From contig JAUCBJ010008119.1 of NCBI GenBank assembly GCA_032718475.1, positions 1 through 55,616 on the forward strand: DNA of 55,616 nt, written 5' to 3'. This document shows positions 6,001-54,106 of the stretch, in pieces. This DNA comes from Nemertoderma westbladi (Eukaryota > Animalia > Xenacoelomorpha). The position numbers and the translations under genes were made by a program. The notes below the pieces were generated by a model. The model was not told where the DNA came from, made no database searches, and worked only from the letters and a program-made list of their open reading frames with translations. Each line of letters starts with the position of its first letter. Position 1 is the first letter of the stretch.

Positions 6001-6234
6001 AGCTAGGTTAGTGTACCAGTTAGTGTACCAGTTGTATATGGAAGGAGCTCAGCTAGGTTAGTGTACCAGTTGTATATGGAAGGAGCTCAGCTAGGTTAGT
6101 GTACCAGTTGTGTACCAGTTGTATATGGAAGGAGCTCAGCTAGGTTAGTGTACCAGTTTGTGTACCAGTTGTATATGGAAGGAGCTCAGCTAGGTTAGTG
6201 TACCAGTTAGTGTACCAGTTGTATATGGAAGGAG
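1..6234. repeat. Minisatellite array, left arm: 51-bp unit GTATATGGAAGGAGCTCAGCTAGGTTAGTGTACCAGTT(A/T)GTGTACCAGTT, with 39-bp variants lacking one 12-bp subunit
   Basis: Directly visible tandem repeat; runs off the window start and stops mid-unit after GGAAGGAG at 6234. Confidence 0.99.
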
Positions 6235-12396: not shown

Positions 12397-12632
12397 AGCG
12401 TTAGTTTAGTAGATTTGAGTAGGGTAGGCGGTAGGGGTAGAGAGAGAGAGTGAGGGGTGGGGGTGGGGGTGGGGGGTAGTTTTTTTGTAGTCGCCGGATC
12501 AAATAAGTGAACGGGGACACTCCGTAGACAAGTAGTGTTGTTTACCGGAGAATCTACAGCACTAGACAGAAGTAATACAATAATTAAAATGCCCAATACC
12601 AATATCCCAACCATGCATTATCCTAACAAAAT

Positions 12633-19500: not shown

Positions 19501-19570
19501 AGCCGGAGCCATTAGAATTGAGCGCTGTAGCACCATCCTGAGCACCAGATCCATCTTTATTGTTAAACAC
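16517..19570 (-). CDS. RTE-X-like ORF2, APE endonuclease plus reverse transcriptase; true C-terminus displaced to 6853-7002
   Basis: TFNVRG, GIQELW, GGVGLLI, GDFNAD, YIDHI, SDHVPV; SYRPIS, LDISAAYD, GIKQGSILSP, GYADDI, FLG. The annotated start is GTG. Confidence 0.95.
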   Translation of the reverse strand: MFNNKDGSGAQDGATALNSNGSGLDAKCTNFKENNSAVVTKTNLNCLTFNVRGALSNMMYVDKLLDEHNVDICGIQELWLDGTECEKIWCESFKNNYECLYIPGHQTKHCAVVRGGVGLLIRKNLFDYTMPLESSNDIIGIKATLGNLDLLVLNVYAPDAGKPVSEFYDFLGRLTNILKSYPNSLPILIGDFNADVGPLQGLRFSREHASARGKIFHEFLMQQGIHAADTFSAFQGPTVTFHGRNKSYIDHIVTSRSGANSIHQGFVLGMDEFHNNSDHVPVLVCFKLEVKREEKEKISTKNVQRIHRFAWEKCSKEKLSKYMQETEHKLNRLKDIVSCFDRKWTKRDIDWYGHSLKAIFYDTAYEYIPKKQHKKKSNNIRVRNKKLLERCQTSKKLYNIWCERGKDSGDTFGQMFQDSKRATRHLKNWLTKQHLSKRIDHLIGSYRHNPSGFWNFVNNKRKDTTAESMRDPLTDYLCNQLQKDSSQPKNINSLLEKLSSACSQTEAPVISEKLVERTILLLNRNKSPDKQMMTVEHLLYSEKEVVCYHVTKLLNESISLGCLPDFFGETVVTCIYKGKKKDVCAPSSYRPISSISIFGKVLEGVLLREYLFLEPSPQQLAYQSGIGSDVILSAVLECIEHYRRHGSGVYVCQLDISAAYDGVDQIKLFQRMSDVINPYICRILVVYYQLSRLFININGLVSENGFTMLNGIKQGSILSPALFNYYTNGMFTNIYSCNGQSKIGCRIYNELFSALGYADDILLMASCPRDMEKLATRIETHITKLGLRLEDSKINWIYLSPWNTAENKPPPTLFLNGRQHDMSQSITFLGVNIQRSWQNNVNVLANTIQALAILADRFHKQGWTTKHYPVEKVALLWRSIALSSFLYRHKYSIGALKKFEKAKLDAYYRQKLRGLLHLGSYVSNETLNHLFGTDSLSVGAYRSCLGTLLRGLSTPNYNLQVIFRLGVQNNALGNPGTYQGLGGTLRYAIQEHSLPSIKSLCNYQYCHKSLCLWWPAN

Positions 19571-23150: not shown

Positions 23151-23228
23151 AATAATCTCACGATATTAATAGGTTATAATATTTCAGCAGTATTAGTACA
23201 GCAGTATTAGTACAGCAGTATTGATGAA

Positions 23229-29200: not shown

Positions 29201-32200
29201 TATATGGAAGGAGCTCAGCTAGGTTAGTGTACCAGTTTGTGTACCAGTTGTATATGGAAGGAGCTCAGCTAGGTTAGTGTACCAGTTTGTGTACCAGTTG
29301 TATATGGAAGGAGCTCAGCTAGGTTAGTGTACCAGGTTGTGTACCAGTTGTATATGGAAGGAGCTCAGCTAGGTTAGTGTACCAGTTTGTGTACCAGTTG
29401 TATATGGAAGGAGCTCAGCTAGGTTAGTGTACCAGTTTGTGTACCAGTTGTATATGGAAGGAGCTCAGCTAGGTTAGTGTACCAGTTAGTGTACCAGTTG
29501 TATATGGAAGGAGCTCAGCTAGGTTATTGTACCAGTTTGTGTACCAGTTGTATATGGAAGGAGCTCAGCTAGTGTACCAGTTAGTGTACCAGTTGTATAT
29601 GGAAGGAGCTCAGCTAGGTTAGTGTACCAGTTTGTGTACCAGTTGTATATGGAAGGAGCTCAGCTAGGTTAGTGTACCAGTTTGTGTACCAGTTGTATAT
29701 GGAAGGAGCTCAGCTAGGTTAGTGTACCAGGTTGTGTACCAGTTGTATATGGAAGGAGCTCAGCTAGGTTAGTGTACCAGTTGTATATGGAAGGAGCTCA
29801 GCTAGGTTAGTGTACCAGTTTGTGTACCAGTTGTATATGGAAGGAGCTCAGCTAGGTTATTGTACCAGTTTGTGTACCAGTTGTATATGGAAGGAGCTCA
29901 GCTAGTGTACCAGTTAGTGTACCAGTTGTATATGGAAGGAGCTCAGCTAGGTTAGTGTACCAGTTTGTGTACCAGTTGTATATGGAAGGAGCTCAGCTAG
30001 GTTAGTGTACCAGTTAGTGTACCAGTTGTATATGGAAGGAGCTCAGCTAGGTTATTGTACCAGTTTGTGTACCAGTTGTATATGGAAGGAGCTCAGCTAG
30101 TGTACCAGTTAGTGTACCAGTTGTATATGGAAGGAGCTCAGCTAGGTTAGTGTACCAGTTTGTGTACCAGTTGTATATGGAAGGAGCTCAGCTAGGTTAG
30201 TGTACCTGTTTGTGTACCAGTTGTATATGGAAGGAGCTCAGCTAGTGTACCAGTTAGTGTACCAGTTGTATATGGAAGGAGCTCAGCTAGGTTAGTGTAC
30301 CAGTTTGTGTACCAGTTGTATATGGAAGGAGCTCAGCTAGGTTAGTGTACCTGTTTGTGTACCAGTTGTATATGGAAGGAGCTCAGCTAGTGTACCAGTT
30401 AGTGTACCAGTTGTATATGGAAGGAGCTCAGCTAGGTTAGTGTACCAGTTTGTGTACCAGTTGTATATGGAAGGAGCTCAGCTAGGTTAGTGTACCTGTT
30501 TGTGTACCAGTTGTATATGGAAGGAGCTCAGCTAGTGTACCAGTTAGTGTACCAGTTGTATATGGAAGGAGCTCAGCTAGGTTAGTGTACCAGTTAGTGT
30601 GCCAGTTGTATATGGAAGGAGCTCAGCTAGGTTAGTGTACCAGTTTGTGTACCAGTTGTATATGGAAGGAGCTCAGCTAGTGTACCAGTTAGTGTACCAG
30701 TTGTATATGGAAGGAGCTCAGCTAGGTTAGTGTACCAGTTTGTGTACCAGTTGTATATGGAAGGAGCTCAGCTAGGTTAGTGTACCTGTTTGTGTACCAG
30801 TTGTATATGGAAGGAGCTCAGCTAGGTTAGTGTACCAGTTAGTGTACCAGTTGTATATGGAAGGAGCTCAGCTAGGTTAGTGTACCTGTTTGTGTACCAG
30901 TTGTATATGGAAGGAGCTCAGCTAGTGTACCAGTTAGTGTACCAGTTGTATATGGAAGGAGCTCAGCTAGGTTAGTGTACCAGTTGTATATGGAAGGAGC
31001 TCAGCTAGGTTAGTGTACCAGTTTGTGTACCAGTTGTATATGGAAGGAGCTCAGCTAGGTTAGTGTACCTGTTTGTGTACCAGTTGTATATGGAAGGAGC
31101 TCAGCTAGTGTACCAGTTAGTGTACCAGTTGTATATGGAAGGAGCTCAGCTAGGTTAGTGTACCAGTTAGTGTGCCAGTTGTATATGGAAGGAGCTCAGC
31201 TAGGTTATTGTACCAGTTTGTGTACCAGTTGTATATGGAAGGAGCTCAGCTAGTGTACCAGTTAGTGTACCAGTTGTATATGGAAGGAGCTCAGCTAGGT
31301 TAGTGTACCAGTTTGTGTACCAGTTGTATATGGAAGGAGCTCAGCTAGGTTAGTGTACCTGTTTGTGTACCAGTTGTATATGGAAGGAGCTCAGCTAGGT
31401 TAGTGTACCAGTTAGTGTACCAGTTGTATATGGAAGGAGCTCAGCTAGGTTAGTGTACCAGGTTGTGTACCAGTTGTATATGGAAGGAGCTCAGCTAGGT
31501 TAGTGTACCAGTTAGTGTACCAGTTGTATATGGAAGGAGCTCAGCTAGGTTAGTGTACCAGTTTGTGTACCAGTTGTATATGGAAGGAGCTCAGCTAGGT
31601 TAGTGTACCAGTTTGTGTACCAGTTGTATATGGAAGGAGCTCTGCTAGGTTAGTGTACCGGTTGTATATGGAAGGAGCTCAGCTAGGTTAGTGTACCAGT
31701 TTGTGTACCAGTTGTATATGGAAGGAGCTCAGCTAGGTTAGTGTACCAGGTTGTGTACCAGTTGTATATGGAAGGAGCTCAGCTAGGTTAGTGTACCAGT
31801 TAGTGTACCAGTTGTATATGGAAGGAGCTCAGCTAGGTTAGTGTACCAGTTGTATATGGAAGGAGCTCAGCTAGGTTAGTGTACCAGGTTGTGTACCAGT
31901 TGTATATGGAAGGAGCTCAGCTAGGTTAGTGTACCAGTTAGTGTACCAGTTGTATATGGAAGGAGCTCAGCTAGGTTAGTGTACCAGTTGTATATGGAAG
32001 GAGCTCAGCTAGGTTAGTGTACCAGTTGTATATGGAAGGAGCTCAGCTAGGTTTGTGTACCAGTTGTATATGGAAGGAGCTCAGCTAGGTTAGTGTACCA
32101 GGTTGTGTACCAGTTGTATATGGAAGGAGCTCAGCTAGGTTAGTGTACCAGTTAGTGTACCAGTTGTATATGGAAGGAGCTCAGCTAGGTTATTGTACCA

Positions 32201-35160
32201 GTTAGTGTACCAGTTGTATATGGAAGGAGCTCAGCTAGGTTAGTGTACCAGTTGTATATGGAAGGAGCTCAGCTAGGTTAGTGTACCAGTTGTATATGGA
32301 AGGAGCTCAGCTAGGTTAGTGTACCAGTTTGTGTACCAGTTGTATATGGAAGGAGCTCAGCTAGGTTAGTGTACCAGGTTGTGTACCAGTTGTATATGGA
32401 AGGAGCTCAGCTAGGTTAGTGTACCAGTTAGTGTACCAGTTGTATATGGAAGGAGCTCAGCTAGGTTAGTGTACCAGGTTGTGTACCAGTTGTATATGGA
32501 AGGAGCTCAGCTAGGTTAGTGTACCAGTTTGTGTACCAGTTGTATATGGAAGGAGCTCAGCTAGGTTAGTGTACCAGTTTGTGTACCAGTTGTATATGGA
32601 AGGAGCTCAGCTAGGTTAGTGTACCAGTTAGTGTGCCAGTTGTATATGGAAGGAGCTCAGCTAGGTTATTGTACCAGTTTGTGTACCAGTTGTATATGGA
32701 AGGAGCTCAGCTAGTGTACCAGTTAGTGTACCAGTTGTATATGGAAGGAGCTCAGCTAGGTTAGTGTACCAGTTTGTGTACCAGTTGTATATGGAAGGAG
32801 CTCAGCTAGGTTAGTGTACCAGTTAGTGTACCAGTTGTATATGGAAGGAGCTCTGCTAGGTTAGTGTACCAGTTGTATATGGAAGGAGCTCAGCTAGGTT
32901 ATTGTACCAGTTAGTGTACCAGTTGTATATGGAAGGAGCTCAGCTAGGTTAGTGTACCAGTTTGTGTACCAGTTGTATATGGAAGGAGCTCAGCTAGGTT
33001 ATTGTACCAGTTAGTGTACCAGTTGTATATGGAAGGAGCTCAGCTAGGTTAGTGTACCAGGTGTATATGGAAGGAGCTCAGCTAGGTTAGTGTACCAGTT
33101 AGTGTACCAGTTGTATATGGAAGGAGCTCAGCTAGGTTATTGTACCAGTTTGTGTACGAGTTGTATATGGAAGGAGCTCAGCTAGGTTAGTGTACCAGTT
33201 AGTGTACCAGTTGTATATGGAAGGAGCTCAGCTGGGTGACTGTACCAGTTAGTGTACCAGTTGTATATGGAAGGAGCTCAGCTAGGTTAGTGTACCAGGT
33301 GTATATGGAAGGAGCTCAGCTAGGTTAGTGTACCAGTTAGTGTACCAGTTGTATATGGAAGGAGCTCAGCTAGGTTAGTGTACCAGTTTGTGTACCAGTT
33401 GTATATGGAAGGAGCTCAGCTAGGTTAGTGTACCAGTTTGTGTACCAGTTGTATATGGAAGGAGCTCAGCTAGGTTAGTGTACCAGTTTGTGTACCAGTT
33501 GTATATGGAAGGAGCTCTGCTAGGTTAGTGTACCAGTTGTATATGGAAGGAGCTCAGCTAGGTTATTGTACCAGTTTGTGTACCAGTTGTATATGGAAGG
33601 AGCTCAGCTAGGTTAGTGTACCAGGTGTATATGGAAGGAGCTCAGCTAGGTTAGTGTACCAGTTTGTGTACCAGTTGTATATGGAAGGAGCTCAGCTAGG
33701 TTAGTGTACCAGTTTGTGTACCAGTTGTATATGGTAGGAGCTTAGCTAGGTTAGTGTACCAGTTAGTGTACCAGTTGTATATGGAAGGAGCTCAGCTAGG
33801 TTAGTGTACCAGTTTGTGTACCAGTTGTATATGGAAGGAGCTCAGCTAGGTTAGTGTACCAGTTTGTGTACCAGTTGTATATGGAAGGAGCTCAGCTAGG
33901 TTAGTGTACCAGTTAGTGTACCAGTTGTATATGGAAGGAGCTCAGCTATGTTAGTGTACCAGTTTGTGTACCAGTTGTATATGGAAGGAGCTCAGCTAGG
34001 TTAGTGTACCAGTTTGTGTACCTGTTGTATATGGAAGGACTCAGCTAGGTGAGTGTACCAGTTAGTGTACCAGATGTATATGGAAGGAGCTCAGCTAGGT
34101 TAGTGTACCAGTTGTATATGGAAGGAGCTCAGCTAGTGTACCAGTTTGTGTACCAGTTGTATATTGAAGGAGCTCAGCTAGTGTACCAGTTAGTGTACCT
34201 GTTGTATATGGAAGGAGCTCAGCTAGGTTAGTGTACCAGGTTGTGTACCAGTTGTATATGGAAGGAGCTCATCTAGGTTAGTGTACCAGTTTGTGTACCA
34301 GTTGTATATGGAAGGAGCTCAGCTAGGTTAGTGTACCAGTTAGTGTACCAGTTGTATATGGAAGGAGCTCAGCTAGGTTAGTGTACCAGTTTGTGTACCA
34401 GTTGTATATGGAAGGACTCAGCTAGGTGAGTGTACCAGTTAGTGTACCAGTTGTATATGGAAGGAGCTCAGCTAGGTTAGTGTACCAGTTAGTGTACCAG
34501 TTGTATATGGAAGGAGCTCAGCTATGTTAGTGTACCAGTTTGTGTACCAGTTGTATATGGAAGGAGCTCAGCTAGGTTAGTGTACCAGTTTGTGTACCTG
34601 TTGTATATGGAAGGACTCAGCTAGGTGAGTGTACCAGTTAGTGTACCAGATGTATATGGAAGGAGCTCAGCTAGGTTAGTGTACCAGTTGTATATGGAAG
34701 GAGCTCAGCTAGGTTAGTGTACCAGTTTGTGTACCGGTTGTATATGGAAGGAGCTCAGCTAGGTTAGTGTACCAGTTAGTGTACCAGTTGTATATGGTAG
34801 GAGCTTAGCTAGGTTAGTGTACCAGTTTGTGTACCAGTTGTATATGGAAGGAGCTCAGCTAGGTTAGTGTTCCAGTTAGTGTACCAGGTTGTGTACCAGT
34901 TGTATATTGAAGGAGCTCAGCTAGTGTACCAGTTAGTGTACCAGTTGTATATGGAAGGAGCTCAGCTAGGTTAGTGTACCAGTTAGTGTACCAGTTAGTG
35001 TACCAGTTAGTGTACCAGTTAGTGTACCAGTTAGTGTACCAGTTAGTGTACCAGTTGTATATGGAAGGAGCTCAGCTAGGTTAGTGTACCAGTTAGTGTA
35101 CCAGTTAGTGTACCAGTTAGTGTACCAGTTGTATATGGAAGGAGCTCAGCTAGGTTAGTC
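23229..35160. repeat. Minisatellite array, right arm (same 51/39-bp unit), with 12-bp subunit expansions near both ends
   Basis: Directly visible; up to about 7 consecutive TTAGTGTACCAG subunits near 34970-35052; decays by ~35190. Confidence 0.99.
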
Positions 35161-35814: not shown

Positions 35815-36642
35815 GTGTTACAACATTCGTTATGTACAGCTTTATCCTAGGTGTTACAACATTCGTTATGTACAGCTTTATCCTAGGTGTTACAACATTC
35901 GTTATGTACAGCTTTATCCTAGGTGTTACAACATTCGTTATGTACAGCTTTATCCTAGGTGTTACAACATTCGTTATGTACAGCTTTATCCTAGGTGTTA
36001 CAACATTCGTTATGTACTGTTTTATCCTAGGTGTTACAACATTCGTTATGTACAGCTTTATCCTAGGTGTTACAACATTCGTTATGTACAGCTTTATCCT
36101 AGGTGTTACAACATTCGTTATGTACAGCTTTATCCTAGGTGTTACAACATTCGTTATGTACAGCTTTATCCTAGGTGTTACAACATTCGTTATGTACAGC
36201 TTTATCCTAGGTGTTACAACATTCGTTATGTACAGCTTTATCCTAGGTGTTACAACATTTGTTATGTACAGCTTTATCCTAGGTGTTACAACATTCGTTA
36301 TGTACAGCTTTATCCTAGGTGTTACAACATTCGTTATGTACAGCTTTATCCTAGGTGTTACAACATTCGTTATGTACAGCTTTATCCTAGGTGTTACAAC
36401 ATTCGTTATGTACAGCTTTATCCTAGGTGTTACAACATTCGTTATGTACAGCTTTATCCTAGGTGTTACAACACTCGTTATGTACAGCTTTATCCTAGGT
36501 GTTACAACATTCGTTATGTACAGCTTTATCCTAGGTGTTACAACATTCGTTATGTACAGCTTTATCCTAGGTGTTACAACATTCGTTATGTACAGCTTTA
36601 TCCTAGGTGTTACAACATTCGTTATGTACAGCTTTATCCTAG
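35815..36642. repeat. Intronic 36-bp minisatellite, 23 copies (GTGTTACAACATTCGTTATGTACAGCTTTATCCTAG)
   Basis: 828 bp = 23 x 36, nearly perfect copies. Confidence 0.98.
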
Positions 36643-39690: not shown

Positions 39691-41115
39691 ATAATACATC
39701 AGATTTGTGTGTAAAGCCGTAGATCATCAGACAAAGTCTGGTGGATTTTTTTTCAAATGTGTCGCCCCGTCTATTCGGGACTCCAGAGTACTTAGATACG
39801 GATTGCGCAATGGACTTAGACTGTTTCATCACAAATTACTCGACACTTTGTATGATAAAGAATTGGGCAAAATAAAAAATGAAGATAGTTTGGTTACGGT
39901 TGAAAGTTAATAATGCGAATGGACCAGGTGCAAAAATAACTATGCCAAAAACAGTGGTTAATTTAGGTGACAGAAACTCTAAACTCAACTCAACTGAAAG
40001 TTTGTGCTCTAGGATTGAACTTTGAGCCAACCCCCTCTCTTTCTTAAGTTGTATGAACCAGATTTTATTGTGTCAATTGAATCGGTTGCTAGACAGTTAG
40101 GAGGTACAAAGGGGCCTCTTTTAGACATGAGGCCCTATCCATCATAGAAAACCATGTAGGAAAACCCATTGTATCAAACGTAACCCAAGATGAGTGGGCA
40201 GCGATTGATTCCTTGGCTAAGGATAAATCTATTATTATCCGCCCGGCGGAAAAAGGAAATAAGACAGTCATCCTAAACAAAGTAGATTACGATATTAAAA
40301 TGGAAAACATTTTACATGATACATCTCAGTTTGTTGAACTTGACTGTGACCCCGGGAAAAAATGTGAAAGGCAAATACTCAGTAAACTGAAAGTGTGGTT
40401 TGACAATGGAGCAATTGACAACAAGCTACGTACTAAGTTAGGAGTATATCACTCACAGCTCCCCTACACCTACGTTAACCCAAAAATCCACAAAGAAGGG
40501 TCCCCGCTCCGCAACATACTGTAGTAGCGTATAATAACGCCCGTAGTGGATAAATAGCGTCTTTTGTTGCAAAATTATTAAGAAATTATCTATCATGTGT
40601 GGAATCATACATTAAGAACTCCACAGAGTTCATAAAAAATTAAAATCTGTTACAATTGGAACTAAGGACATCCAAACAAAGTTTCGATGTTGTAAATATG
40701 TTTGGAAACATACCTAGAGGAGATGCCTTTGATGTAGATATGAATATCGTTACCAATGATCCCGATTTTAAAGAATGTGCGGGCATAAGTACGGAGACCT
40801 TTACATCTTTTCTTAACCTTGTTTTAGAATAAACGTCGTTTCAGTACAATAATTATTTTTACCGACAGTGTAAAGACTCCCAATGGGTAACCCAGTTTCA
40901 CCTGTACTCAATTGCTTATTTATGTATAGACTTGAACATTTGGCTAGGGAACGGGATTTTTTGCCACACATATGGTTCAGATATGTGGACGATATTTGGT
41001 GTCTGGCCAACAATAAAAATATTTATAATTTACTTAAATGTATGTATAGCTTACACCAGGACATATCTTTCACTGTAGAGCAACAAGACACCCGCGGTAA
41101 CTTGCCCTTCTTAGA

Positions 41116-41664
41116 TGTTAGCTTATTCAATCCCGCTAACACCCCATAAAGTTAAGCCGATAAGCAATATTGGGAGCCACGAGATTGGGTAATTAACCAA
41201 CTCGTGCCATCCCAATGAGAATGGGAAGGAGAAGCACACAATGAGGGTCAGGGGCCAAACCCCTAACCCAGAGAGAACAGGTGGAGTGAACGGGAACACT
41301 CCAAAGGGCGCCAACAAGGGTATCAACCAATCAGAGGGGGGAAAGGCATCGATTAGGTAGAGTAACAAGGCCAACCGTGCAATATAGCCACTTGGCAGTA
41401 ATCATATCAATTCAGTTATCTCAGTGCAATATTGGTGCTAGTTTAGGTTAGATAGTTTAGCTAGGGAAGGACCGGGACTTTAGTTACCGTATCCCGCCTT
41501 CCGTATACAACAACCATATTATCTCATATCTATACCTATATCTATATCTGTATACCCAAATATTATATACGACGAACAGCACAAACTCCTTTATCTTTCA
41601 TACACGGCGGGGACGAGTGAACTAACAAACGGATAAACCGGGATCTCATCTGGATCCCGTCACA
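41116..41664 (+). repeat. 5' LTR (549 bp)
   Basis: TGTTAG...GTCACA; no difference from the 3' LTR seen by eye. Confidence 0.97.
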
Positions 41665-41764
41665 GTAACTAAATCGAGCTGCCGCCCTAGTTAAACTGTA
41701 AAACTAACTAAACCAACTGCTGGCCTAACTAGCCAAACCACCAGCCACCAATCTGCAGAAGGAG

Positions 41765-44700
41765 ATGAGTCAGTCGGGAGAAACAACACCGACGCGGACC
41801 CCGGACGAAGAACAAACGATCCGCGAGGCCGCGACCAGGCGGTATAGGCCCACGACGCCGGAGCCATCGGTAACGGGCGACCCGGAAATTCAAGATGAGG
41901 GGGACCGTCGGGAGTCAGAAGCCGAGTCGAGAGGAGGGGGAATCGAGTCGGAGGATAGAGAGAACAAGCTCGAGGGAGAAGGAGACGAGTCGACACGGGA
42001 CGGGGGTCGACGCACCGGTGTCGCCGGCCAGCCACAGGCCGAGGGCGACGAGCGGCCCACCGAAACGGCGACGGTGGGGCCAACGGTGCGGCGCCGGACG
42101 CGGAGAAACGGAGGAGAAATTGGTACCGATGTCGCCGGCCAGCCACAGGCCGAGGGCGACGGACGGCCCGCCGGAACGGCGACGGTGGGGCCGCCGGTAC
42201 GACGTCGAACCCGGAGAGACGGACGAGAGGTCGGCGACGAGGACGTCGGGGTTTCTGAGCAACTTCGACGGGCCTACAACGCGACCCGGAGACTACTAGA
42301 GGAGGCCAGAAAGGGGAAAACGATAGACGAGGTAAAACTAAAGTCAGTACTAGGTAAGTCGGACAGACATTTATATTATCTGATGCGCTTCAGGCAGAGA
42401 GAACTAGCCGAGGAGAGGGCGAAAGGGGTTGCCAGTGAACTGTTTGAACTATGGGAATGTGGGAGTATGGAACCTAGCGTAGCGTCAGTGTACATAGGGC
42501 CATACTTGGTCGATGCCCGGGGAGTAAAATTAGTGGGCTGGAGGGGACCTGAAGGGGGCGAATCCGAGGTTAACCCCGAGGATTCGGCCTCGTCGGTCGG
42601 AGGAAGTTCCGGGAAGCGGGGGAAAGTTAGTAGATCGGGAAGGCGGAGGGAGTCCGTCGGAACCGATAAGTCTGCTACATCCTCCGCAAAAGGAAGACGG
42701 GTGAGAGAGGTAGGTGCCACGTACCGTCTCGACCTGATAGAGCAAGGTCAGAAGGAAATGGATAAACGGTTGGAGGAGGGGAGAATGCGGCTAGAGAGGG
42801 AAGCGGCATTGATTAGAGAAACCGGAGAGAGGGCCGAAAGGGCTTTGAGAGGCCTTAGGGAGTGTGAGGAAATAGAGGAAAAGGAGTGTAGGGAGCGTGA
42901 GGCGAGAGAGGAAAGGGAACGCAAAGAGCGTGAGGCGGAACACAAGGAGCATGAGGCGAGAGAGGAAAAGGAACGCAAGGAGCGTGAGGCGAGACGGGAA
43001 AGTGAACGCAAGGAGCGTGAAGCGAGGCGAAGGGAGAGCGCTAGGAGAGTAGCAGAGCTGGCTGAGCGGGACGCGCGGGAATGTGAGAGGAGAATGGTAG
43101 AAGCTGAGCGAGAGCAAAAGGAACTAAAGAGACGCCAAGGTGAGCTTGCGGAACATAGGATTAGACGCATGCACGAGCTGCAACTGGTGCGGGCGGGGAC
43201 GTCTGAGAGCGGGACTGGCTCGAGTATTCTAGGGGAGCCAGGGGCCGTGGATACATTTATTAATACCCCACTTACAGGGACCGCACGACAGACCCAAAAC
43301 TGGTGTGACCGTACGGGCGGGGGGGGGGGGGTAATAATGATAATGGTACAGTAGACGTGGTTAATATTAATAGTACCGTATGGGATAATTCTAATCAAAC
43401 CTTTATTGCAGGAAATACTTTGCCTAGTGGTAGTAATTTAAATTTAAATCAGAACAATCCTAATATTAATGTAGAAAATAATTCTAATATTAATGTAGAA
43501 AATAATTCTAATATTAATGTAGCTACACAAAGTAATCCAAATAATTTAAATAATAATCCGAGCCCGAATTTACAAAATAATTCAGATAGTGTAGTCGCAC
43601 AAAATAATTCAAACGATTTTATTTCGAATGAACAAATTAATTCCGTTTCCAATATGGGTGCTATTAACATAAACACGTCGGGCGTGTATAGCCAGACAGA
43701 CGGGGGCCTGGTAGGTCGTACAGTTAGTAGGCAGGGAGTAGCTGGGTCAGGTAGACCCAGCGAGGGCCTGGTAGGCCACGTAGTTGGTAGGCAGGAAGAT
43801 GCTGGGTTGAATAGACCCAGCGAGGGCCTGGTAGGCCACACAGTTAGTAGGCAGGGAGTAGCTGGGTCAGGTAGACCCAGCGAGGGCCTGGTAGGCCACG
43901 TAGTTGGTAGGCAGGAAGAGGCTGGGTTGAATAGACCCAGCGAGGGCCTGGTAGGCCACATAGTTGGTAGGCAGGGAGCAGAGGGCCTGGTAGGCCACGT
44001 AATAGCAGAGGGAGAGGCGGGGGTGAATAGACCCGACCGTGATAGGGTTGATGTGTCGACTAGAGGGGGATATAGTAGCGGGGTGAGAGGTGGCGAAATT
44101 AGATGTGGCGGGTGGGGGGGGGGGGGGGGCTACAGGGGCCCCACAACAGCGAGTTAGCGGCGAAAGGGGGGGGGGGGGAGAGTGTCCCACAGCCGTCAGC
44201 GGATAATACGCGGGCCGAAATGGGTAAACCGCAACAACCGGCGACGGAAAGTAATAGGGGGATTGCGAGTATCCCCAGCGGCGTGCGACCGAGCAGAGAG
44301 AGACAGGTTGACGTCGTAAGAGGGCGGACGAAGCGTCGAGCCCGATCGGAAGAGGGAAGAAGAACAGTGGGGTTTAACCGGGAGGTCGACGAGAGATCTC
44401 ACGAGCGGGAATACTCCACTGAAAGGAGAAGGAGAGAAGACAGCAGTAGAGGTATCGCCGCGAACGATAGAAGAGCGAGGACGGATAGCGAGCCGTCGGT
44501 AGTTGAGATGAGAACGGAGAGTCGATGGGGTCGGACTCCGGGAGATTGCTGTCGCCCCGGAGAGATGCGACCCGGCGAGGCGCACTACGCGCCGATGGAG
44601 GGGTACGCGATGTACCGGTACGAAGACGAGAACAGTAGGGGGGGGGGGGGGGGTCGAAGAGAAACTTTCCGACGGAATACACCTATCGATCGAGAATACG

Positions 44701-47238
44701 GTAGCTGCGGGGAGGATTATTCGAGAAGAATAAACTTCGATCCCGAACAACACATGCAGACTGTAGGACATACTGTAGGCCTTACTGCACATACCATAGG
44801 CCATACTGAGAGAGGCAATGTGGGCGATAGGACAGCGTGGACAACGGGATTAAACCCGGAAGTCGCGGAATACATACCGGCGGGTAGGCCAGAAGCTGAT
44901 AGGCCTATACCGGTACCAGTACAGCAGTATGACTACAGCATGCAGGGACATAACATATACCCAGGGGAGGGGGGAATTATTGCGGATAGGTGCATGGGCC
45001 CCAACATATTAACATCAACCCCAGTACCAAACATACCGGTGGGGGGGGGGACAGGGTGACATTCCCCCATCACAATATCAACAATATACCCCGATAGGAG
45101 CAAGAACAACGAGACCCTTGGATGAGAATAGGTCGTGTGATACAGACATATGGAGGGGGCCGCTACCCCCGATGACATACCCAAGTCAGAGAAGATCGAG
45201 AAATAGGACGAACGAACCGCACCAGACAGGAGAAACTATACAGCACCCGTCGAATCCATTGGAAGCGCATGCGATGGGGATGGCCACGTTGATCGATGCG
45301 TTGAAAACGAGGATCGAGTTACCACCCGTGGAACCATTCAAATTCGATGGGAGCAGGCCGGAAGAATATCTACAGTTTCGGCGCATGTATAGTAACGAAA
45401 TACTAACAAAAAACTTGACGCAGGCGGAGTGCCTAAAGTATCTGCAAGTATACACGGGAGGCCCAGCATACGATATCGTGAGGCAATATCAAGGAATAGA
45501 GGGCGGCTTCACGACAGCATGGCGGGCACTGGATAGGGAATACGGGAACCCGGCCAAAATCATCAGGCAAACGCTGAGAGGCATAACATCGGGTGGCCTA
45601 CAGGATAATCTCGTTAGCATTAAAACGTTCGCTAACAAAGTCGAAAAGGCGCTGATCGTGCTGAAGACGCTAGACGCGCCATACGAGCTCAACGCGTCCA
45701 ACAACATCACCACGATAGCGCAGGCACTACCAAACTGGCTGCGCAACAAGTGGAGGAAAATCGCCTTCTCCACTCGAGACAAGAAGGGTGCGGAACCGGG
45801 TTTAGAAGAAATGTCAAACTTCTTAAACTACGAGGCTGAGCTAATAACTGACCCAGTCTATAGCGAAGATAGCCTGGGAAAGGGACCGAAGACGGATTAC
45901 CATAGACCGAAACCAGAGCACAATACATCAAACGCATTACCGAGGCTCAGGCTGGTTGACAGTGGAGCTGCCTTCACACTAGTCGAGGAATGGGTGGCCG
46001 AAGAGATAGGATTGAGAACGAGGCCAAGCAGAATGGCGGTAACAACCATCTCTAGCAAAGATGAGATCCTGGAGATGAGAACAGGACGGTGCGCAATTGC
46101 AGCAGTGGCACCGGGATGCGACTACGGGGCAACCATCGACCCCATCCAAGTGATAGAATCAATTAATATCAATGCCAGGCGGCCAACCAACATCGAGGTC
46201 GAGCAATAGAAATTCCTGGACGACATTGACTTCTCAATCCCAGATGTGGACGTTAGGAAGGTATCCATCATAGTAGGAATGGACTGCCCAACGGCCCACG
46301 AAAGAATGCAAACGGTCTTCGGCGAAGACAAGCAGTGTGAACCGGTGGCGATATTAACACCATTCGGGTGGACACTGACAGGCCCAATTAAGAGTAATAT
46401 ACCATTCCATGCGTCTGAGAGTTCAGGATGCATGGTGCCAGGAACTGTCGACGAGATAGAGGAGAGGCCAGAGATGGGCAATAGTGGTAGACAGCTAGAA
46501 GTGGAAGCAACACCACGAGAGTGGGCGGAGGAGAATGGCATGGATGCAGAAGATCTAGAGACGATGGGTTGGAACAAGAGTCCCAGCAAGCATCGGTATG
46601 GAGATGGAGAGGAGCGGACGGCAAAATGTCCGGGGGACAGGACGGAGGAGTGTCCGGAAGAGATGCCGGTCCGGTTGGGAGGCATGCCGACAAGGGGGAG
46701 GCCGAGCAGGAGGACTAAATGGAAAGGGAGAAGACTTGAGACGATCAGACCAGGGGCAGAGAAGCCCGTGGGTGGGCATGTGATGGACAAAGGATCCGGG
46801 AAAGTAGGAGGCGTGCTGCATACGCACGCGGGACTGACAGAGTGTGAAGGAGCATTACATGGGCAGAGACCGTGTATACCGAAGGACGAACGGGGGTCGT
46901 CGAGGCCTTTAGTGCCAGCACACATATTAAGGGGGAGGCCAGCAGAGGTGGCATCTAAGATTAAGGAGAAGAACAGGGGCGGCATTATACCGCCGGGTGA
47001 CACGTTGAAGGGTGGCACTTTGCCGCCAAGGGACGACCACGAGATCAGAAACATAAATAGCAGACAGCATTTCCAAAAACAGGAGAAAAGACCACCTATC
47101 GAATTGACAAGGAGAGCGGAGCGAAGAATTAGAGAACCTATAGGGGGGCAGTGGGAGAGTTGCCTGCTGGAGGAATCACCCCTTGGGTCGCTGAGTTGTC
47201 CAACAGGTTGGACTGGGATGGAAGAGTTAGATCCGTAA
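41765..47238 (+). pseudogene. Gag-protease polyprotein of BEL/Pao type; one long frame broken by three shifts at G homopolymers and one TAG (46207-46209)
   Basis: Coiled coil; DUF1759-like IELPPVEPFKFDGS...LKYLQVYTGGPA...LDREYGNP; aspartic protease LVDSGAAFT, IIVGMD, TPFGWTLTGP. Frame changes map to G runs at ~43320, ~44120 and ~45045. Confidence 0.88.
43704..44000 (+). repeat. 60-bp coding repeat (EGLVGHxVxRQ...RPS) in gag, alternating two unit types
   Basis: Visible in DNA and translation. Confidence 0.9.
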
Positions 47239-47429
47239 AAGGTGCGGGCAGAGGTGTTACCTGTCTGTTAGAAGGGGCACCTTAGTGGAGTTAGAGAAGA
47301 GTTTAGTCGTCCAAGTTTTGGACTGAGGGGGGTGGGATTGAGGGCGAGACGCCCTTCCCACACATAAAATAAAAAAAATAGAAAATAAAATAAAATAAAT
47401 AAGTACATAGTAGGTACGCAGTTAGTAGG

Positions 47430-48125
47430 CAGTAAGAGGGTACGTAGTACCTAGAAGTTAGTCAGTAAGAGGGTATGTAGTACCTAGAGTTAGTTAGCTA
47501 GGAGGTACGTAGTACCTAGAGTTAGTTAGTTAGGAGGTACGTAGTACCTAGAGTTAGTTAGTTAGGAGGTACGTAGTACCTAGAGTTAGTTAGTTAGAGG
47601 GTACATAGTACCGATAGTTAGTTAGAGAGTTAGAAGGTACGTAGTACCGATAGTTAGTTAGAGAGTTAGAGGGTACGTAAGTACCGATAGTTAGTTAGAG
47701 AGTTAGAGGGTATGTAGTACCGATAGTTAGTTAGAGAGTTAGAAGGTACGTAGTACCGATAGTTAGTTAGAGAGTTAGAGGGTACGTAAGTACCGATAGT
47801 TAGTTAGAGAGTTAGAAGGTACGTAGTACCGCTAGTTAGTTAGAGAGTTAGAGGGTACGTAAGTACCGCTAGTTAGTTAGAGTTAGAGGGTATGTAGTAC
47901 CATTAGTTAGAGAAGAGTTAGAGGGTACGTAGTACCGTTAGTTAGAGAAGAGTTAGAGGGTACGTAGTACCGTTAGTTAGAGAAGAGTTAGAGGGTACGT
48001 AGTACCGTTAGTTAGAGAAGAGTTAGAGGGTACGTAGTACCGTTAGTTAGAGGAGAGTTAGAGGGTACGTAGTACCGTTAGTTAGTTAGAATTAGAGTTA
48101 GAGGGTACGTAGTACCGTTAGTTAG
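47430..48125. repeat. About 20 tandem 31-40-bp units, each with a GGTAC-GTA-GTACC mini-hairpin
   Basis: Directly visible in the non-coding spacer between gag-protease and the extra ORF. Confidence 0.93.
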
Positions 48126-48608
48126 AAGAGAGAGAGTAAGAGGTAGAAGGGGTATAAGATATAGATATTAGTTAGCAGTTAGTAGCGAGAGGGGGGCATA
48201 TGGGTACAGCTGGATAAATCGTGTGGCCACACGACGCATACTGCTGTACTGCATAGGCCCACAGAGTAGGCCAGAATGTGGATTAGAGAATAGAATAATC
48301 TATAGGCAATAGTAAGTAGTAGGACAGTAGAATTAAAATAGATAAATAAATAGAATAGGGCTGAAAGTTACAAAATAATGGCAACACAAGGGAAGTTATT
48401 CTAGAACATAATAAAAGTAACGGACAGAAATTGTAAATTACGCTCATTTACTAGCTTCACAATTAATTAGTGATAATTTAGGTTAAAAGGCGCAGTTAGG
48501 TAAGAAATAGGCCATTATCGAACCGTACAGAACATCCTAGATACATCACTCATCTGTATTGCGCCTTGGTAAGGCACCACCTTGCAGGTGAGCGAGTGAA
48601 CGTTCGGA

Positions 48609-49856
48609 ATGGCGAGCAAGTTGATCAGAAAGAGAAAGGCGGAGTCAGGAGGAAAGGAGATACTGGTGGATTTCACCGAGAGGCATCCGGAAGAGAAGAC
48701 GAGAGGATACTACGAGAGGTTGGAAAGGGGTCACGCGGCACGAGCGCTGCAGGATCACTTCAGGGAGATGCACGAACAGCGGCTGGTCGGGACCTACGGG
48801 ACGCCGTCGCTGGACAACGCGATCTTCCAACACTTCCACTACGTGGTGAAAGGGGACGAGGCGAAGTTCGGGATTCCGAAGTACCCGAGGGAATCACCGA
48901 GGAAGGACTGGAAGAGATTCATAGAGTCCGTCAACAGAGGAGGATATATGATCCTAGACGACGAGGGAACCGTGGAAGACGAGGCGGGTTCGAGACGAGG
49001 AACGGCGGAGTCGGCCAGGACCATACTCCTACATTTGGCCGCGCCAAATGGGGACATCTTCTTATTCGACCTAGGGACGTATGGGAAGAAGGACGGGCCG
49101 AAATTAAACCGGTTACCGAAAGCGGTACAAGTCTTGGTAAGAGAGAAGTTGACGACGAAAGTGGGATCGGCGATTCGCGAGGATGCGGAGAGAATCATCG
49201 GTCCGGACGCCACCAACCTCCTGGATATGCAGAAGGTCTTTATGGCTATGACGGCACCGGATGGGTTGGGGGTAGTCGAAAACACAGACCAATGCGGGGC
49301 GGTGGCAATGGGCCAATTATTGGGGCTCGTGTGCCACAAACCGATGGATTGGGGGAAGTTTAGGGAAGAATACGGAGCAGAACTAGCGAACTCGCTAAAG
49401 TGGGGAGCGAGACCGGGAAAGCAGGAGGTATATCAATTCCGCAGGGGAGCGATAAAGGTATATCAGAAGCGATATATCCTGCAGGAGGACTGGATGATGA
49501 TAAGTTTGCTTAACTTATTCATGACCGTGGTTATCGAGAGGGAACCAGGGGCATTTCTGTTATCGGGATCACCCCTAAGCTACAGGAGAGCCTTTAAGAC
49601 GGCCTTTGACGGTCTGGTAGACCACCCGGGGCTGAAGGGCGAGTCGGTGTACTACAACAGCCGGCATCTGGTAGACGGGGAGACAGATACACCGTATCAG
49701 AGATGGGAGCAGCTAGAGACGGATAGACGAGAAGCAAAGCGACTGGAAGAAGTCGCTAGACGGGAGAGGATAGAAGCAGAGGAGAGGGAAGAGGAGGCCA
49801 GGACGCAGAGTTACGGCTTCATTGGACTTCATCAGGGAGTTCGGGGGAGTCTCTAG
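48609..49856 (+). CDS. DnaQ-like DEDDy 3'-5' exonuclease domain protein (WRN-exo/EXD2/Mut-7-like), 5' part of the extra ORF
   Basis: ExoI ILDDEG (48957-48965); LLHLAAPNGDIFLFDL; LPKAVQVLV...TKVGSAIRED (ExoII); LLDMQ; ExoIII-like QKRYILQED. Confidence 0.72.
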   Translation: MASKLIRKRKAESGGKEILVDFTERHPEEKTRGYYERLERGHAARALQDHFREMHEQRLVGTYGTPSLDNAIFQHFHYVVKGDEAKFGIPKYPRESPRKDWKRFIESVNRGGYMILDDEGTVEDEAGSRRGTAESARTILLHLAAPNGDIFLFDLGTYGKKDGPKLNRLPKAVQVLVREKLTTKVGSAIREDAERIIGPDATNLLDMQKVFMAMTAPDGLGVVENTDQCGAVAMGQLLGLVCHKPMDWGKFREEYGAELANSLKWGARPGKQEVYQFRRGAIKVYQKRYILQEDWMMISLLNLFMTVVIEREPGAFLLSGSPLSYRRAFKTAFDGLVDHPGLKGESVYYNSRHLVDGETDTPYQRWEQLETDRREAKRLEEVARRERIEAEEREEEARTQSYGFIGLHQGVRGSL

Positions 49857-51127
49857 GGCGAGAATTGGGATGGACGGTGGGATCGCCGAAACAGTCGACG
49901 TCGGGGTTGCAAGCGATGCCCATACCAGCGGGCGCCGAGGGCGACCAACCGCCAAGGAAGTTAAGGGAGCTAGAGGGATGGAGAGCTACGGGCGAGAGCC
50001 AAGGCGGGAAGGGACATAGTGGATCCATCGGGATACCGGGGTTGGAGACACTGCCAGAAGAGGAGGACGACGACGACGAGTTCGGAGAGATGCCGCCCAT
50101 CGAGAGGATAGGCCACTCGGACACGGAGTGGGTTGGCGGAAGGGTGGTGATGGCCAGTGGGGCGAGGGCCTTCTGGAACAGATCCGGCAAGCGGACCTGG
50201 ATGCACGAGGAGCCGGCGATGGATTTCGCGGGGAGCACTATCAGGTTGGGCGAGCAACCGGGGACGGCACCACGGATAGTATTCGGGGAGACGATGCCCG
50301 AGAGGGGCGGAGAGATCGACGTAGATAGAGACACCAACGTGGAGAAGTTCGCCTACCAGCGACTCCACAGACCGCGGAGATCGCTTGGGACGAAAGACGA
50401 GGTGGGACGGGAGACATTGATACTCGGCTGCGACTACTGTGGGAGACAGACCCACCAGGAAAGGAGCTGCTTGTAGCGGTTCCAGAAGGGAACCTTTTGT
50501 CTCTACTGCCGAGAGCCAAGCCACAGGATGGGGGCGTGTCCACGGTTGCATAACCGATGTCCAAAGTGCCACTTTCGGGGACACTACGGACGCGAGTGCG
50601 ACTGGATGAACGACGAGGAGAAGTTCACAAGATTCGAGGAGTGGGCCGACGTCGGGGCCATGACGCGCCAGCGCATGAAGGCCCAGGAGTTCAAGTGGGG
50701 TTTCTTCCTTATCAATCAGGAGACTCACATGGAAATCATAAAGCGGTGTCTACCGTTTACCTACCAAGAGGTAGCAACGGCGGCGTCGTACGCCGGAGTG
50801 ATGAACACGCAAAGATATTTGGACAGGTGGACGCCACAGAACCGAAGGGAGTTTAGGGATTTCTTGGCAGAGCACGTACCACAAGCAATGAAGATGATCC
50901 TATGGGACGCCACCAGAGGGAGACAACCGGGCCACTCTGAGGGGCCACCGGCGAAGCGATATCGGGCACTAATAACACCAGCGCCCAAGGAGCCAACGAC
51001 CGGGATCAGCAGGGAGGTGGCGGCGAAGGTCCGAAAGCAGAAAGCGGATCCCAGAGGAACGGTGGTAACCAAGAAACGACCCAGGGAAGAGGACGCCAGG
51101 GGGAACTATCCCCAGAGGAACAGATAG
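49790..51127 (+). pseudogene. Probable continuation of the extra ORF: acidic linker, three CCHC zinc knuckles, basic tail; one frameshift near 49790 and a TAG at 50474-50476
   Basis: ORFs 49865 and 50528 share a frame; CDYCGRQTHQERSC, CLYCREPSHRMGAC and CPKCHFRGHYGREC are all CX2CX4HX4C. Confidence 0.72.
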
Positions 51128-51802
51128 GTTCCCAGAGCCGAGGGAGAGAGACTGAGACTTGGACGTGGTGCGCCTGGAAGGCGCCGCGTGGGACGTACGA
51201 ACTATTAAGTACAAATTTAATTAATGCAAATAATCATATAAGTGCAATTTGTATGTACGTACGTAGTAATTAGTAATCTACAAATATACGTTCGGAGTAA
51301 GTACTATAGTCATACAACCTTTCTCAATTAGCTACTGGGACTGGGGGATAACTGACTATGGCACTATGGACGAGACACCAGACGATTTCACACTTCTTGA
51401 GTGCGACGGCACGAAAGGGGGGGGGGGGGAGATTCGTCGGAAGGGATGAGGTAGTCAAAGTGGGGTTGAGGGACGGAGTAATGGAGCGAAGTGCAGAGGG
51501 AGTGCGGACGCAATTCTAGTGTGTGGGGAGGAGAATAAGAGGCTGAGTAAGGGACAAGGAGGTCCGAGTGTATGAGAGAGTTAGGATGAGAGTGAAGAAG
51601 AGATAGGGCGGAAGTGTTGGGGAAACAAAAGTTGCGTGAGAGGTGAGCGCGATCGGCCCGACATGAGACGCCAGGCACACAGGGTAGCGTTATCATACCC
51701 ATAGGGAGCGGCCTGGAAAGCCGGCTCAGAGAGAAAAGAATTCCACCCCACACCCGATACTAGATCGGGATCCAGCGGGATTGTAGCGCACTTTTTTGGT
51801 TG

Positions 51803-51839
51803 ATGCTATCTTCTTACCGGGAAGATAGCATGGGGGGAG
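51803..51839 (+). promoter_or_regulatory. 11-bp hairpin (ATGCTATCTTC/GAAGATAGCAT) followed by polypurine tract GGGGGGAG
   Basis: Lies immediately before the TG of the 3' LTR. Confidence 0.8.
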
Positions 51840-52388
51840 TGTTAGCTTATTCAATCCCGCTAACACCCCATAAAGTTAAGCCGATAAGCAATATTGGGAG
51901 CCACGAGATTGGGTAATTAACCAACTCGTGCCATCCCAATGAGAATGGGAAGGAGAAGCACACAATGAGGGTCAGGGGCCAAACCCCTAACCCAGAGAGA
52001 ACAGGTGGAGTGAACGGGAACACTCCAAAGGGCGCCAACAAGGGTATCAACCAATCAGAGGGGGGAAAGGCATCGATTAGGTAGAGTAACAAGGCCAACC
52101 GTGCAATATAGCCACTTGGCAGTAATCATATCAATTCAGTTATCTCAGTGCAATATTGGTGCTAGTTTAGGTTAGATAGTTTAGCTAGGGAAGGACCGGG
52201 ACTTTAGTTACCGTATCCCGCCTTCCGTATACAACAACCATATTATCTCATATCTATACCTATATCTATATCTGTATACCCAAATATTATATACGACGAA
52301 CAGCACAAACTCCTTTATCTTTCATACACGGCGGGGACGAGTGAACTAACAAACGGATAAACCGGGATCTCATCTGGATCCCGTCACA
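51840..52388 (+). repeat. 3' LTR (549 bp)
   Basis: Repeat of 41116-41664, followed by the TTAGA duplication. Confidence 0.97.
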
Positions 52389-52807
52389 TTAGATGTTTTA
52401 GTCTCAATTTCGAATGGTTCAATTTGAACTACAGTATACCAAAAACCCTTTCCATTTCTAGCTTTCTAGGTAAGTAAAACAGAGGATTATTTCCCAATAA
52501 TTGTTGATATTGTCCGTTGTGCCTCTATCAACTGACAACTGTTGCAACCCTTCTACCCTACCCACTCATTGTACCCATCTCCCAACCTATTTTTAAGCAG
52601 CTGATGAAATTATATTTATGACGTTTTGTAATGAATGTTTAGTTTAAGAGACAAATGGAGAATCCTCAATAACCTTCTAGGAATTATACCGCCTATAATA
52701 AGCCATGTGGGATAAAACAAATAAGCACAATATACATTAGATCAGTTTGTGAAGCTAATAATTGTATTTTGTATTTAAATCAAAATTAATATTATTTCAT
52801 ATTCATA

Positions 52808-54106
52808 ATGTTGGATGAAACACTTTCTCTTAACCAAACTCCAACAAATAAACCTCATGGATGGAGACTTACTGTGTTGGTTTCTTTACTGATGGTATTC
52901 CAGTTAATACCAGGATGGGCAATGACTCTACTAGAAACATTTTTCCCTATCGTTGTGGAAAAGCGTGACTGGTCTAACACCCTCATTGGTTCCCTGTTTG
53001 CTATTTACCCCCTCGTACAGATTATCCTTTACATTGGTTTTCCACATTCTATCACCAACTGGGGAACGCGAATTTCCTTAGGAATATCCGGCATCATTGG
53101 AACGATCGGCCAGTTACTCTTTGGATTTGTAGAATACATTCCTAACAACGGAGGACACATATTCACATGTTTTTTGCTGCGCCTGATACAAGGAATAGGT
53201 CTCAACATCAGTTACATTTACTCCTACAATTTATTAATGGAATTGATGCCAAACCACAGAAGTTTCTTAGCTGGTATATCAATTGTTCTTTCCGCGGTCA
53301 GCTATGCTATCGCTCCAGTTTTCGGATCAGCCGTTTTTGCTTCAATGGGCTTTGAATATCCATTTATCATATCGAGTTTGATGTTTCTCATTGGTGTTCT
53401 TTACTGCTGGCACGAGGCACCTCCTTACCTTTACGATAGACATGAATCTAATGAGGAAAGACCAACATATCTTGGATTGCTGAAGAACCCAGCAATCACA
53501 ATAATCTATATATTCCACTTCTATATTACAATGATGTTATATTTCACAGTGGCTTATTATGCTTCTTATATTCACAGCTACTATTATGTTAACCAATATA
53601 ATATTGGTTTAGCATATACGATTCAACCAGTGAGCGAGACTTGTATCGCTCTCGTAATAACGGTTTTCATTAAGAAGTTCAATTTCAATACAATATATCT
53701 AACTTTTATTGGTGGAACAATAACATTTGGCACAATGCAACTCGTAGGGCCAACTGAGATATTGGGTATACCTTACTCCTTAAACATTTCTTTAAGCTCC
53801 TTGGCTATATTTGGAGTGGGAGCCGGGTTAATGTCGATTCCTGCATTTGAAACACAAACTCGTCTGGCTGTTAGAGTATGCGGTCACCCCGACAACATTG
53901 ATACCAGGGCTGTTCTTCAACAAGCTCTTAGAATCTCATATTCTGTTGGTTTTTTACTTGGTGCGCTATTTGGTGGAATTCTAATTGACGATTTCGGATT
54001 CCAAATTGCCGCTTCTTTGCTTAGTTTGATCATTCTGCCCTTTTTGTTTGCTCTCATTGCCCTGTGCGCTTGTGGCCGTGTTGGCCCAGTACTTGGGCCA
54101 TCGTAA
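52808..54106 (+). CDS. SLC18B1: MFS transporter, SLC18B1 (vesicular polyamine transporter)-like, intact single-exon ORF of 432 aa
   Basis: About 12 hydrophobic segments; FFPIVVEKRDWSNTLIG, LFGFVEYIP, CFLLR, GFEYPF, LVGP, GAGLMSIPAF, GGILIDDFGFQIAA parallel the recalled SLC18B1 sequence; AATAAA at 54204. Confidence 0.85.
   Translation: MLDETLSLNQTPTNKPHGWRLTVLVSLLMVFQLIPGWAMTLLETFFPIVVEKRDWSNTLIGSLFAIYPLVQIILYIGFPHSITNWGTRISLGISGIIGTIGQLLFGFVEYIPNNGGHIFTCFLLRLIQGIGLNISYIYSYNLLMELMPNHRSFLAGISIVLSAVSYAIAPVFGSAVFASMGFEYPFIISSLMFLIGVLYCWHEAPPYLYDRHESNEERPTYLGLLKNPAITIIYIFHFYITMMLYFTVAYYASYIHSYYYVNQYNIGLAYTIQPVSETCIALVITVFIKKFNFNTIYLTFIGGTITFGTMQLVGPTEILGIPYSLNISLSSLAIFGVGAGLMSIPAFETQTRLAVRVCGHPDNIDTRAVLQQALRISYSVGFLLGALFGGILIDDFGFQIAASLLSLIILPFLFALIALCACGRVGPVLGPS

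Follow-up and report, generated by a model that had tools for sequence, protein, structure and literature searches.

An apparently undescribed third gene of BEL/Pao retrotransposons, with a probable DEDDy exonuclease domain and zinc fingers, on a pol-deleted copy from Nemertoderma westbladi

Contig JAUCBJ010008119.1 of Nemertoderma westbladi (55,616 nt, read on the forward strand; the whole stretch is called the window below) carries a long terminal repeat (LTR) retroelement of 11.3 kb at positions 41116-52388. At its env position, an earlier note made from the sequence had pointed out an open reading frame (ORF3, 48609-51127) with the motifs of a DEDDy exonuclease followed by three zinc knuckles. 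What does such a gene do for a retrotransposon, and how does it come to sit on a copy that has lost most of its pol? DEDDy ORF3s were described in rotifer retroelements in 2017, and their role has been an open question ever since. With a probability of roughly 55%, we read the window element as a recent, pol-deleted BEL/Pao copy mobilised in trans, and its ORF3 as a member of a family of likely RNA-binding 3'-5' exonucleases that would trim RNA 3' ends for the element.

ORF3 in the window copy and in other BEL/Pao elements

In the window copy, ORF3 is divided into three pieces on the plus strand, first by a change of frame and then by a stop that falls after knuckle 1 and before knuckle 2. Piece 1 (48609-49856, 415 aa) holds the probable DEDDy domain (D117, E119, D192, Y289, E293/D294) and a charged helix; its DxE is encoded at 48957-48965 and its D (KVGS..D) at 49158-49184, and YILQED follows. 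Piece 2 (49760-50476), in a different frame, comprises an acidic low-complexity linker, knuckle 1 (50429-50470) and a terminal stop, and piece 3 (50477-51127) contains knuckles 2 (50498-50539) and 3 (50558-50599), followed by a domain with the pattern FE..A..G..T..R...WG (the WG domain). All three knuckles have the form CX2CX4HX4C. The motifs and the knuckles were found where the earlier note had placed them, but the single ORF that it described, and with it an intact nuclease-knuckle protein made by this copy, did not hold in view of the frameshift and the stop. Since the frames of neighbouring long interspersed nuclear elements (LINEs) stay open over more than 1000 codons, general error is an unlikely cause of the ORF3 breaks. 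The window copy itself would be a passenger, and a selected function would sit in intact copies.

Homologues of ORF3 were found in reference BEL/Pao loci, designated by L and a number, which were collected from metagenome contigs by a scan for a degenerate motif of the BEL C-terminus (80 of at least 121 stretches were used). Three of the 80 loci (L194, L209 and L211) have the homologue between pol and the 3' end. They were matched by piece 3 in tblastn (E=4e-8 for L211, 2e-7 for L209 and 5e-4 for L194), and each match lies in a single long open frame just 3' of pol, of 996 codons in L211, 1277 in L209 and at least 686 in L194. Thirty-six of the 80 loci, many of them from one record series, extend at least 3 kb past the BEL motif; two carriers are among these 36, and the third, L194, has less flank. 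The remaining loci of the 80 gave no match to the ORF3 profiles (next E=0.39). In all three homologues the fingers are variant CCHC forms within one open frame, and the WG domain is common to the window copy, L194, L209 and L211, with 23 invariant columns in the four sequences.

The N-terminal domain of the window ORF3 matches that of L194 at 26% over 163 residues (E=1e-4), and the score against the window was reached by 0 of 1000 shuffles for L194, 1 of 1000 for L211 and 168 of 1000 for L209. With a profile of the three reference domains, piece 1 took the top rank among 169 window segments (E=0.012). The gag-pol of L194 and of L209 is one ORF, of 2337 and 2194 aa, with reverse transcriptase (RT), Pao peptidase A17 (the RNase H region), integrase zinc finger and DUF5641 in pol; in L209, the contig closes after ORF3 with a purine tract and TG (by eye). 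Because L194 and L209 have homologous ORF3s together with an intact gag-pol upstream, the cargo is not specific to pol-less elements, of which the earlier note had made it a trait; ORF3 is a recurring third gene of BEL/Pao. Capture of ORF3 as a one-off event was considered and rejected in view of the three homologues at the matching position.

In a tree of integrase tails (45 sequences), L194, L209 and L211 form one clade with a support of 0.989, whereas in a capsid-protease tree (17 sequences) the window element groups with elements that showed no ORF3 (support 0.91). Monophyly of the window element with L194/L209 on capsid-protease is rejected by the approximately unbiased test (p=0.031) but not by the Kishino-Hasegawa and Shimodaira-Hasegawa tests (0.058). 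These differing placements suggest that ORF3 was exchanged between BEL/Pao lineages. The ORF3 zinc-finger profile and the BEL motif had no match in viral contigs, piece 3 and gag-pro had no homologue among the longer proteins searched, and six exact sequence look-ups gave 0 matches. A different third-gene arrangement was seen at L201:36-7469, a 2478-aa BEL/Pao polyprotein whose reading frame runs on into a Baculo_F env domain, a roo-like layout.

Contigs from four runs revealed a diverse multi-copy family, for which we considered the 40 best-supported of about 1950 differences, 37 of them in reading frames. Among these rows, 16 of the 19 polymorphic differences in ORF3 are synonymous. Of the near-fixed differences that separate the window copy from nearly all others (pooled over gag, pol remnant and ORF3; cut-off 0.84, chosen after viewing the rows), 11 of 15 are non-synonymous. 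The pattern fits a functional ORF3 in the family and decay in the line of the window copy. The DEDDy likeness could instead be due to chance, or ORF3 could be a decayed host fragment, captured once and functionless for the element, as the absence of a significant library match and the broken ORF3 of the window copy would allow. This is improbable in the light of the homologues at the matching position in three other BEL/Pao elements, the preponderance of synonymous differences and an independent weak match of L194 to EXD2, and the no-function reading is largely excluded.

The exonuclease-like domain and its possible use

The nature of the N-terminal domain was examined with a profile built from 67 DEDDy domains of bacteria, of which 52 are WRN/EXD2-like and 15 RNase D/NrnC. 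Piece 1 ranked first among the 169 window segments (E=0.012, P=1.1e-4), with a score reached by none of 3000 global and none of 3000 local shuffles; for a profile of the 52 WRN/EXD2-like sequences, 1 and 2 of 3000 shuffles reached the score. In a blind search of 177,635 PDB sequences, the sole match of the L194 domain was human EXD2, over the span of ExoI and ExoII (E=0.14), and a profile of the four ORF3s gave four PDB matches, the top two being Egalitarian (E=0.48) and EXD2. Profile-profile comparison of ORF3 with DEDDy yielded P=1.5e-4 and a probability of 51%. In piece 1, the ExoI DxE (on a strand) and the ExoII Asp are in register with DEDDy proteins, and D117, E119, K184, D192, W265, Q286 and Y289 sit in columns that are invariant in the bacterial proteins; the profile matches stop short of ExoIII. 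The N-terminal domain of L194 (L194:964-1941) retains DxE, D and YxxxD. ORF3 resembles EXD2, WRN-exo, Nibbler, EXD1 and Egalitarian in the order and spacing of ExoI, the KVG..D ExoII and ExoIII, and in its weak PDB matches to two of them (EXD2 and Egalitarian), but identity is below 25%, family-specific insertions precede ExoIII, and the window copy has Glu at the ExoIII Asp column.

Several observations weigh against the exonuclease reading. The ExoIII of the window copy has Glu in place of Asp (Y289 is followed by E293/D294, the Asp coming next), and in L209 and L211 the acidic motifs are missing (by eye), with DEDDy-profile scores no better than those of shuffles. The profile of the 15 RNase D/NrnC sequences by themselves misses piece 1, the column-matching control with MAFFT was weak (8 of 14 columns, reached by 19 of 400 shuffles), and a P of 1e-4 equals an E of about 3 at the scale of Pfam. 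Piece 1 had no significant match in Pfam, NCBIfam, PHROGs, PDB sequences or 1.84 billion representatives, and none in a 5.8-billion homologue search or in metagenome, viral and genome contigs, plasmids and phages. A single-sequence AlphaFold model of the domain reached a predicted local distance difference test score (pLDDT) of 37, and Foldseek on this unguided model was uninformative. A model guided by the DEDDy alignment attained a pLDDT of 69 (80-89 in the core), but since the guiding alignment was itself DEDDy, its structure matches are circular as evidence of fold. The count of family differences given above has its own limits: the 37 coding rows stand at the top of about 1950 by support, and several of them are linked on one contig.

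Among DEDDy structures, Foldseek ranked Trypanosoma brucei RNase D (TbRND) best for the guided model, and this preference is partly independent, as the alignment was purely bacterial (matches with Z within 1 count as tied). The search for a DnaQ fold by profile and structure, recommended in the earlier note, gave a divided answer: the unguided model failed and no library match was significant, while the profile tests (0 of 3000 shuffles; L194 with EXD2) were weak but concordant. From these comparisons, a DEDDy fold of the ORF3 N-terminal domain is probable, and 3'-5' exonuclease activity of the window-type domain is somewhat favoured.

The domains of L209 and L211, exonuclease-like and without acidic motifs within long open ORF3s (L209:7330-10137, L211:359-3346), resemble the EXD1/Egalitarian pseudo-nucleases, so that catalysis would be dispensable in some lineages. 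ORF3 could then be mainly an RNA-binding adaptor of the Egalitarian/EXD1 type, serving RNA transport or packaging, whose fingers may also replace the missing gag knuckles in the sublineage of the window copy. Two of the four ORF3s lack the acidic motifs and are still open over 996 and 1277 codons, the zinc-finger/WG domain is the best-conserved part of ORF3, Egalitarian is the top PDB match of its profile, and the window copy is devoid of gag knuckles. However, the acidic residues of ExoI and ExoII are kept by the window copy and L194 across about 21% identity, and the Egalitarian match has an E of 0.48. L194 and L209 retain a long capsid-to-protease segment, which argues that ORF3 was not derived as a knuckle replacement. 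Taken together, we consider the adaptor unlikely.

The closest parallels appear to be the ORF3 of bdelloid Juno/Vesta by position and trypanosome RNase D by architecture. Passages of PMC5408684 and PMC6431247 (with a further citation in PMC6338049) describe DEDDy ORF3s in bdelloid Juno/Vesta LTR retrotransposons and in Terminons, and those of PMC5408684 give them an altered motif (DEED) and more than one acquisition; the same source reports TelKA2n, a non-autonomous bdelloid family that keeps ORF3, with env. What Juno, Vesta and Terminons have in common with the window element is an ORF of DEDDy type that occupies the env position and has an altered motif. No BEL/Pao carrier is named in these passages (PMC5408684, PMC6431247), whereas the carrier described here is BEL/Pao (DUF1759, peptidase A17, DUF5641), and its ORF3, compared by description, goes beyond the bdelloid ORFs in having three zinc fingers as well as a C-terminal domain that is conserved. 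The International Committee on Taxonomy of Viruses profile lists env-like third genes alone for Belpaoviridae (PMC8742986). In agreement with the earlier note, which knew of no such case, the literature that we searched (Repbase, Dfam, GyDB and the supplements of PMC3118150 and PMC5408684 being outside its scope) contained no DEDDy ORF3 in BEL/Pao, and the word 'exonuclease' occurs 0 times in the parts covered of PMC3118150, PMC13524379 and PMC12440569. We are apparently dealing with an undescribed BEL/Pao ORF3 family, here on an ordinary non-autonomous LTR copy.

TbRND (PDB 7c42/7c45) likewise has a DEDD exonuclease followed by tandem CCHC fingers, and according to passages of PMC7797062 these fingers strongly raise RNA binding and U-tail cleavage by the DEDD domain. 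It gave the longest VIA alignment with the guided model (188 residues, Z 10.3, root-mean-square deviation 4.6) and was the second PDB match of the ORF3 knuckle array (E=0.34). TbRND is a cellular mitochondrial enzyme with four fingers and a short linker, in contrast to ORF3, whose three fingers come after about 300 low-complexity residues. The architecture may be convergent, and any direct homology beyond the common fold would be conjectural.

By analogy with these systems, the exonuclease reading would work as follows. The RT and integrase of an autonomous relative would mobilise the window copy, and ORF3 would be expressed from an RNA of its own, probably a spliced one, in the manner of the bdelloid ORF3s. 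On the model of trypanosome RNase D, single-stranded RNA would be held by the zinc fingers of ORF3 and its 3' end passed to the nuclease; the nuclease would strip destabilising tails off the element RNA or shorten small RNAs that target the element, and this trimming would shield the RNA of the family from host silencing. Such a grip-and-trim mechanism protecting element RNA is put forward tentatively, at a little short of even odds. More doubtful is the wider proposal that ORF3 is an RNase D-like zinc-finger enzyme that moves among BEL/Pao lineages, is kept after loss of pol and counters small-RNA silencing (or matures its own primer), its dead versions converging on Egalitarian/EXD1-like adaptors. 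A second, independent-looking family that has the architecture of a characterised enzyme, and in which natural versions look either active (L194, window) or dead (L209, L211), allows direct comparison. If small RNAs or tails are indeed trimmed, animal retrotransposons would carry an anti-silencing enzyme of their own, on a fold that serves hosts in the processing of piRNAs (a role noted in PMC5408684).

The insertion, its deleted gag-pol and the primer site

The window copy is a real and recent insertion, as follows from identical LTRs, target duplication, polypurine tract and bridged empty site. The LTRs (41116-41664 and 51840-52388, plus strand) measure 549 nt each, show 0 differences and have TG...CA ends; the duplicated target TTAGA flanks the element at 41111-41115 and 52389-52393; the polypurine tract GGGGGGAG lies at 51832-51839, upstream of the 3' LTR; and the empty site is bridged by contigs of two runs (joint 41110 to 52389). 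The identical repeats, 5-bp duplication, polypurine tract and recent mobilisation asserted in the earlier note are all borne out.

The interior is a multiply deleted, non-autonomous BEL/Pao derivative and not a complete member. The gag N-terminal region (41753-45059), low-complexity and coiled-coil-like, consists of three frame pieces (41753-43354, 43309-44157 and 44103-45059) that break at G-runs, and the Pfam search gave no match there. Downstream, the capsid (DUF1759, 45343-45759; Pfam E=2.9e-12, tblastn against natural BEL loci down to E=8e-15) and a DSGA aspartic protease (45952-46401; Asp_protease_2 E=5e-5), both on the plus strand, point to BEL/Pao, as the earlier note had recognised, though both are interrupted in this copy. 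Altogether gag-pro is in five pieces, broken at G-runs and by a stop at 46207-46209, inside the protease. The G-run breaks by themselves may be slippage or error (length varies at 45041); general sequencing error as the source of every break was rejected, nearby LINE frames being open over 1025-1200 codons. Between the capsid match and the protease there are about 23 residues, as against about 164 in L185, and no Cys, hence no CCHC nucleocapsid knuckles of gag. With gag broken and without knuckles, the idea that this element makes its own capsid had to be dropped.

The collapsed pol (46402-47285, plus strand) is equally short, about 442 codons from the protease to the pol end compared with about 1270 residues in L185. 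A profile of the region from RT to the integrase core of 20 natural BEL pol proteins matched just the protease tail (46201-46401), so RT, RNase H and integrase core are absent, as had been noted earlier; not all of the integrase is gone, however. A profile of integrase tails (42 sequences) placed 46210-47235 first among the 169 window segments (E=0.34), and the score of the C-terminal remnant at 46831-46956 was reached by 0 of 1000 shuffles in its frame. A DUF5641-like tail (DGRVRSV..CLLE, 47211-47282) was recognised by eye and is not significant (131 of 1000 shuffles). No RT, RNase H or integrase core with a decayed integrase tail left behind identifies a deletion derivative. As capsid, RT and integrase could not be supplied by the copy itself and its LTRs are identical, it was in all likelihood copied in trans with the RT and integrase of a putative autonomous relative, which agrees with the borrowing of pol proposed before.

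Contig depth is low at 46376-47143, a value that is not readable as copy number. Two other studies (X5, X2) have runs with near-identical contigs over 46852-47313 and 46648-46844, so that the collapsed stretch is not private to the present assembly. Two longer contigs, at 84-87% identity, cease to match at the end of the protease (46377-46390), as relatives that continue differently would.

The window element agrees with Belpaoviridae (PMC8742986 and passages of PMC3118150) in an LTR within 0.2-1.2 kb, polypurine tract, gag capsid, protease, integrase tail and a third gene after pol. It differs in having neither RT, RNase H and integrase core nor gag knuckles, in apparently lacking the 18-nt tRNA primer-binding site, and in its length of 11.3 kb. 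Right after the 5' LTR (41665-41673, plus strand), where the tRNA-Arg/tRNA-Gly site of Belpaoviridae was sought, no TGG-type tRNA primer site is present, and a scan of the window revealed neither a noteworthy Rfam match nor a tRNA gene, so that a tRNA primer encoded by the element is not to be expected.

The nine nucleotides at 41665-41673 are exactly complementary to LTR positions 41479-41487, a length of match reached at 7 of 5735 internal positions and in 40 of 20000 shuffled LTRs. In other family copies, nothing past the first 9-11 nt is left at this place, and they rejoin at 41763 from 41673/41675. Self-priming is documented for Tf1 and Tj1 (passages of PMC4600332), and the nuclease could therefore serve reverse transcription, by trimming a Tf1-like self-primer from the 5' RNA or by processing cDNA 3' ends. 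Yet TAGTT/AACTA words are abundant locally, so that the chance of a 9-nt complement is understated, and the lowest-energy fold favours a hairpin internal to the LTR, with a pairing probability of 0.39 for RNA starting at 41414 and 0 for starts at 41470-41481. We judge this use of the nuclease to be very unlikely.

Host site and neighbourhood

The element interrupts the RT frame of a host retroelement (40874-41115, resuming after 52393, plus strand; RVT_1 E=7e-6 and flank translations), which its motifs suggest to be Penelope-like. The 5' LTR contains a TATA-like word at 41381 and an initiator-like TCAGTT at 41412. Perfect short hairpins can be formed at 51789-51830, just 5' of the polypurine tract (by eye), and at 41640-41659, at the 3' end of the LTR. 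A tandem array with a unit of 35-36 nt (47420-48132, plus strand) separates the pol remnant from ORF3.

Elsewhere in the window, a LINE-like region on the minus strand (15283-23165) has a 1200-aa Ulp1 (Peptidase_C48) frame upstream of a 1025-aa endonuclease-RT frame, with a Baculo_FP_2nd frame after it, and a second LINE (9160-12617, minus strand) has an open endonuclease-RT frame of 1081 aa. The LINEs are flanked by arrays of a 50-nt satellite at 4-6234 (129 copies) and 23240-35106 (246 copies), and further arrays with units of 94 nt and 36 nt lie at 12627-14908 and 35815-36642. An intronless frame for an SLC18B1-like MFS transporter (52790-54106, E=1e-21) begins 400 nt from the 3' LTR.

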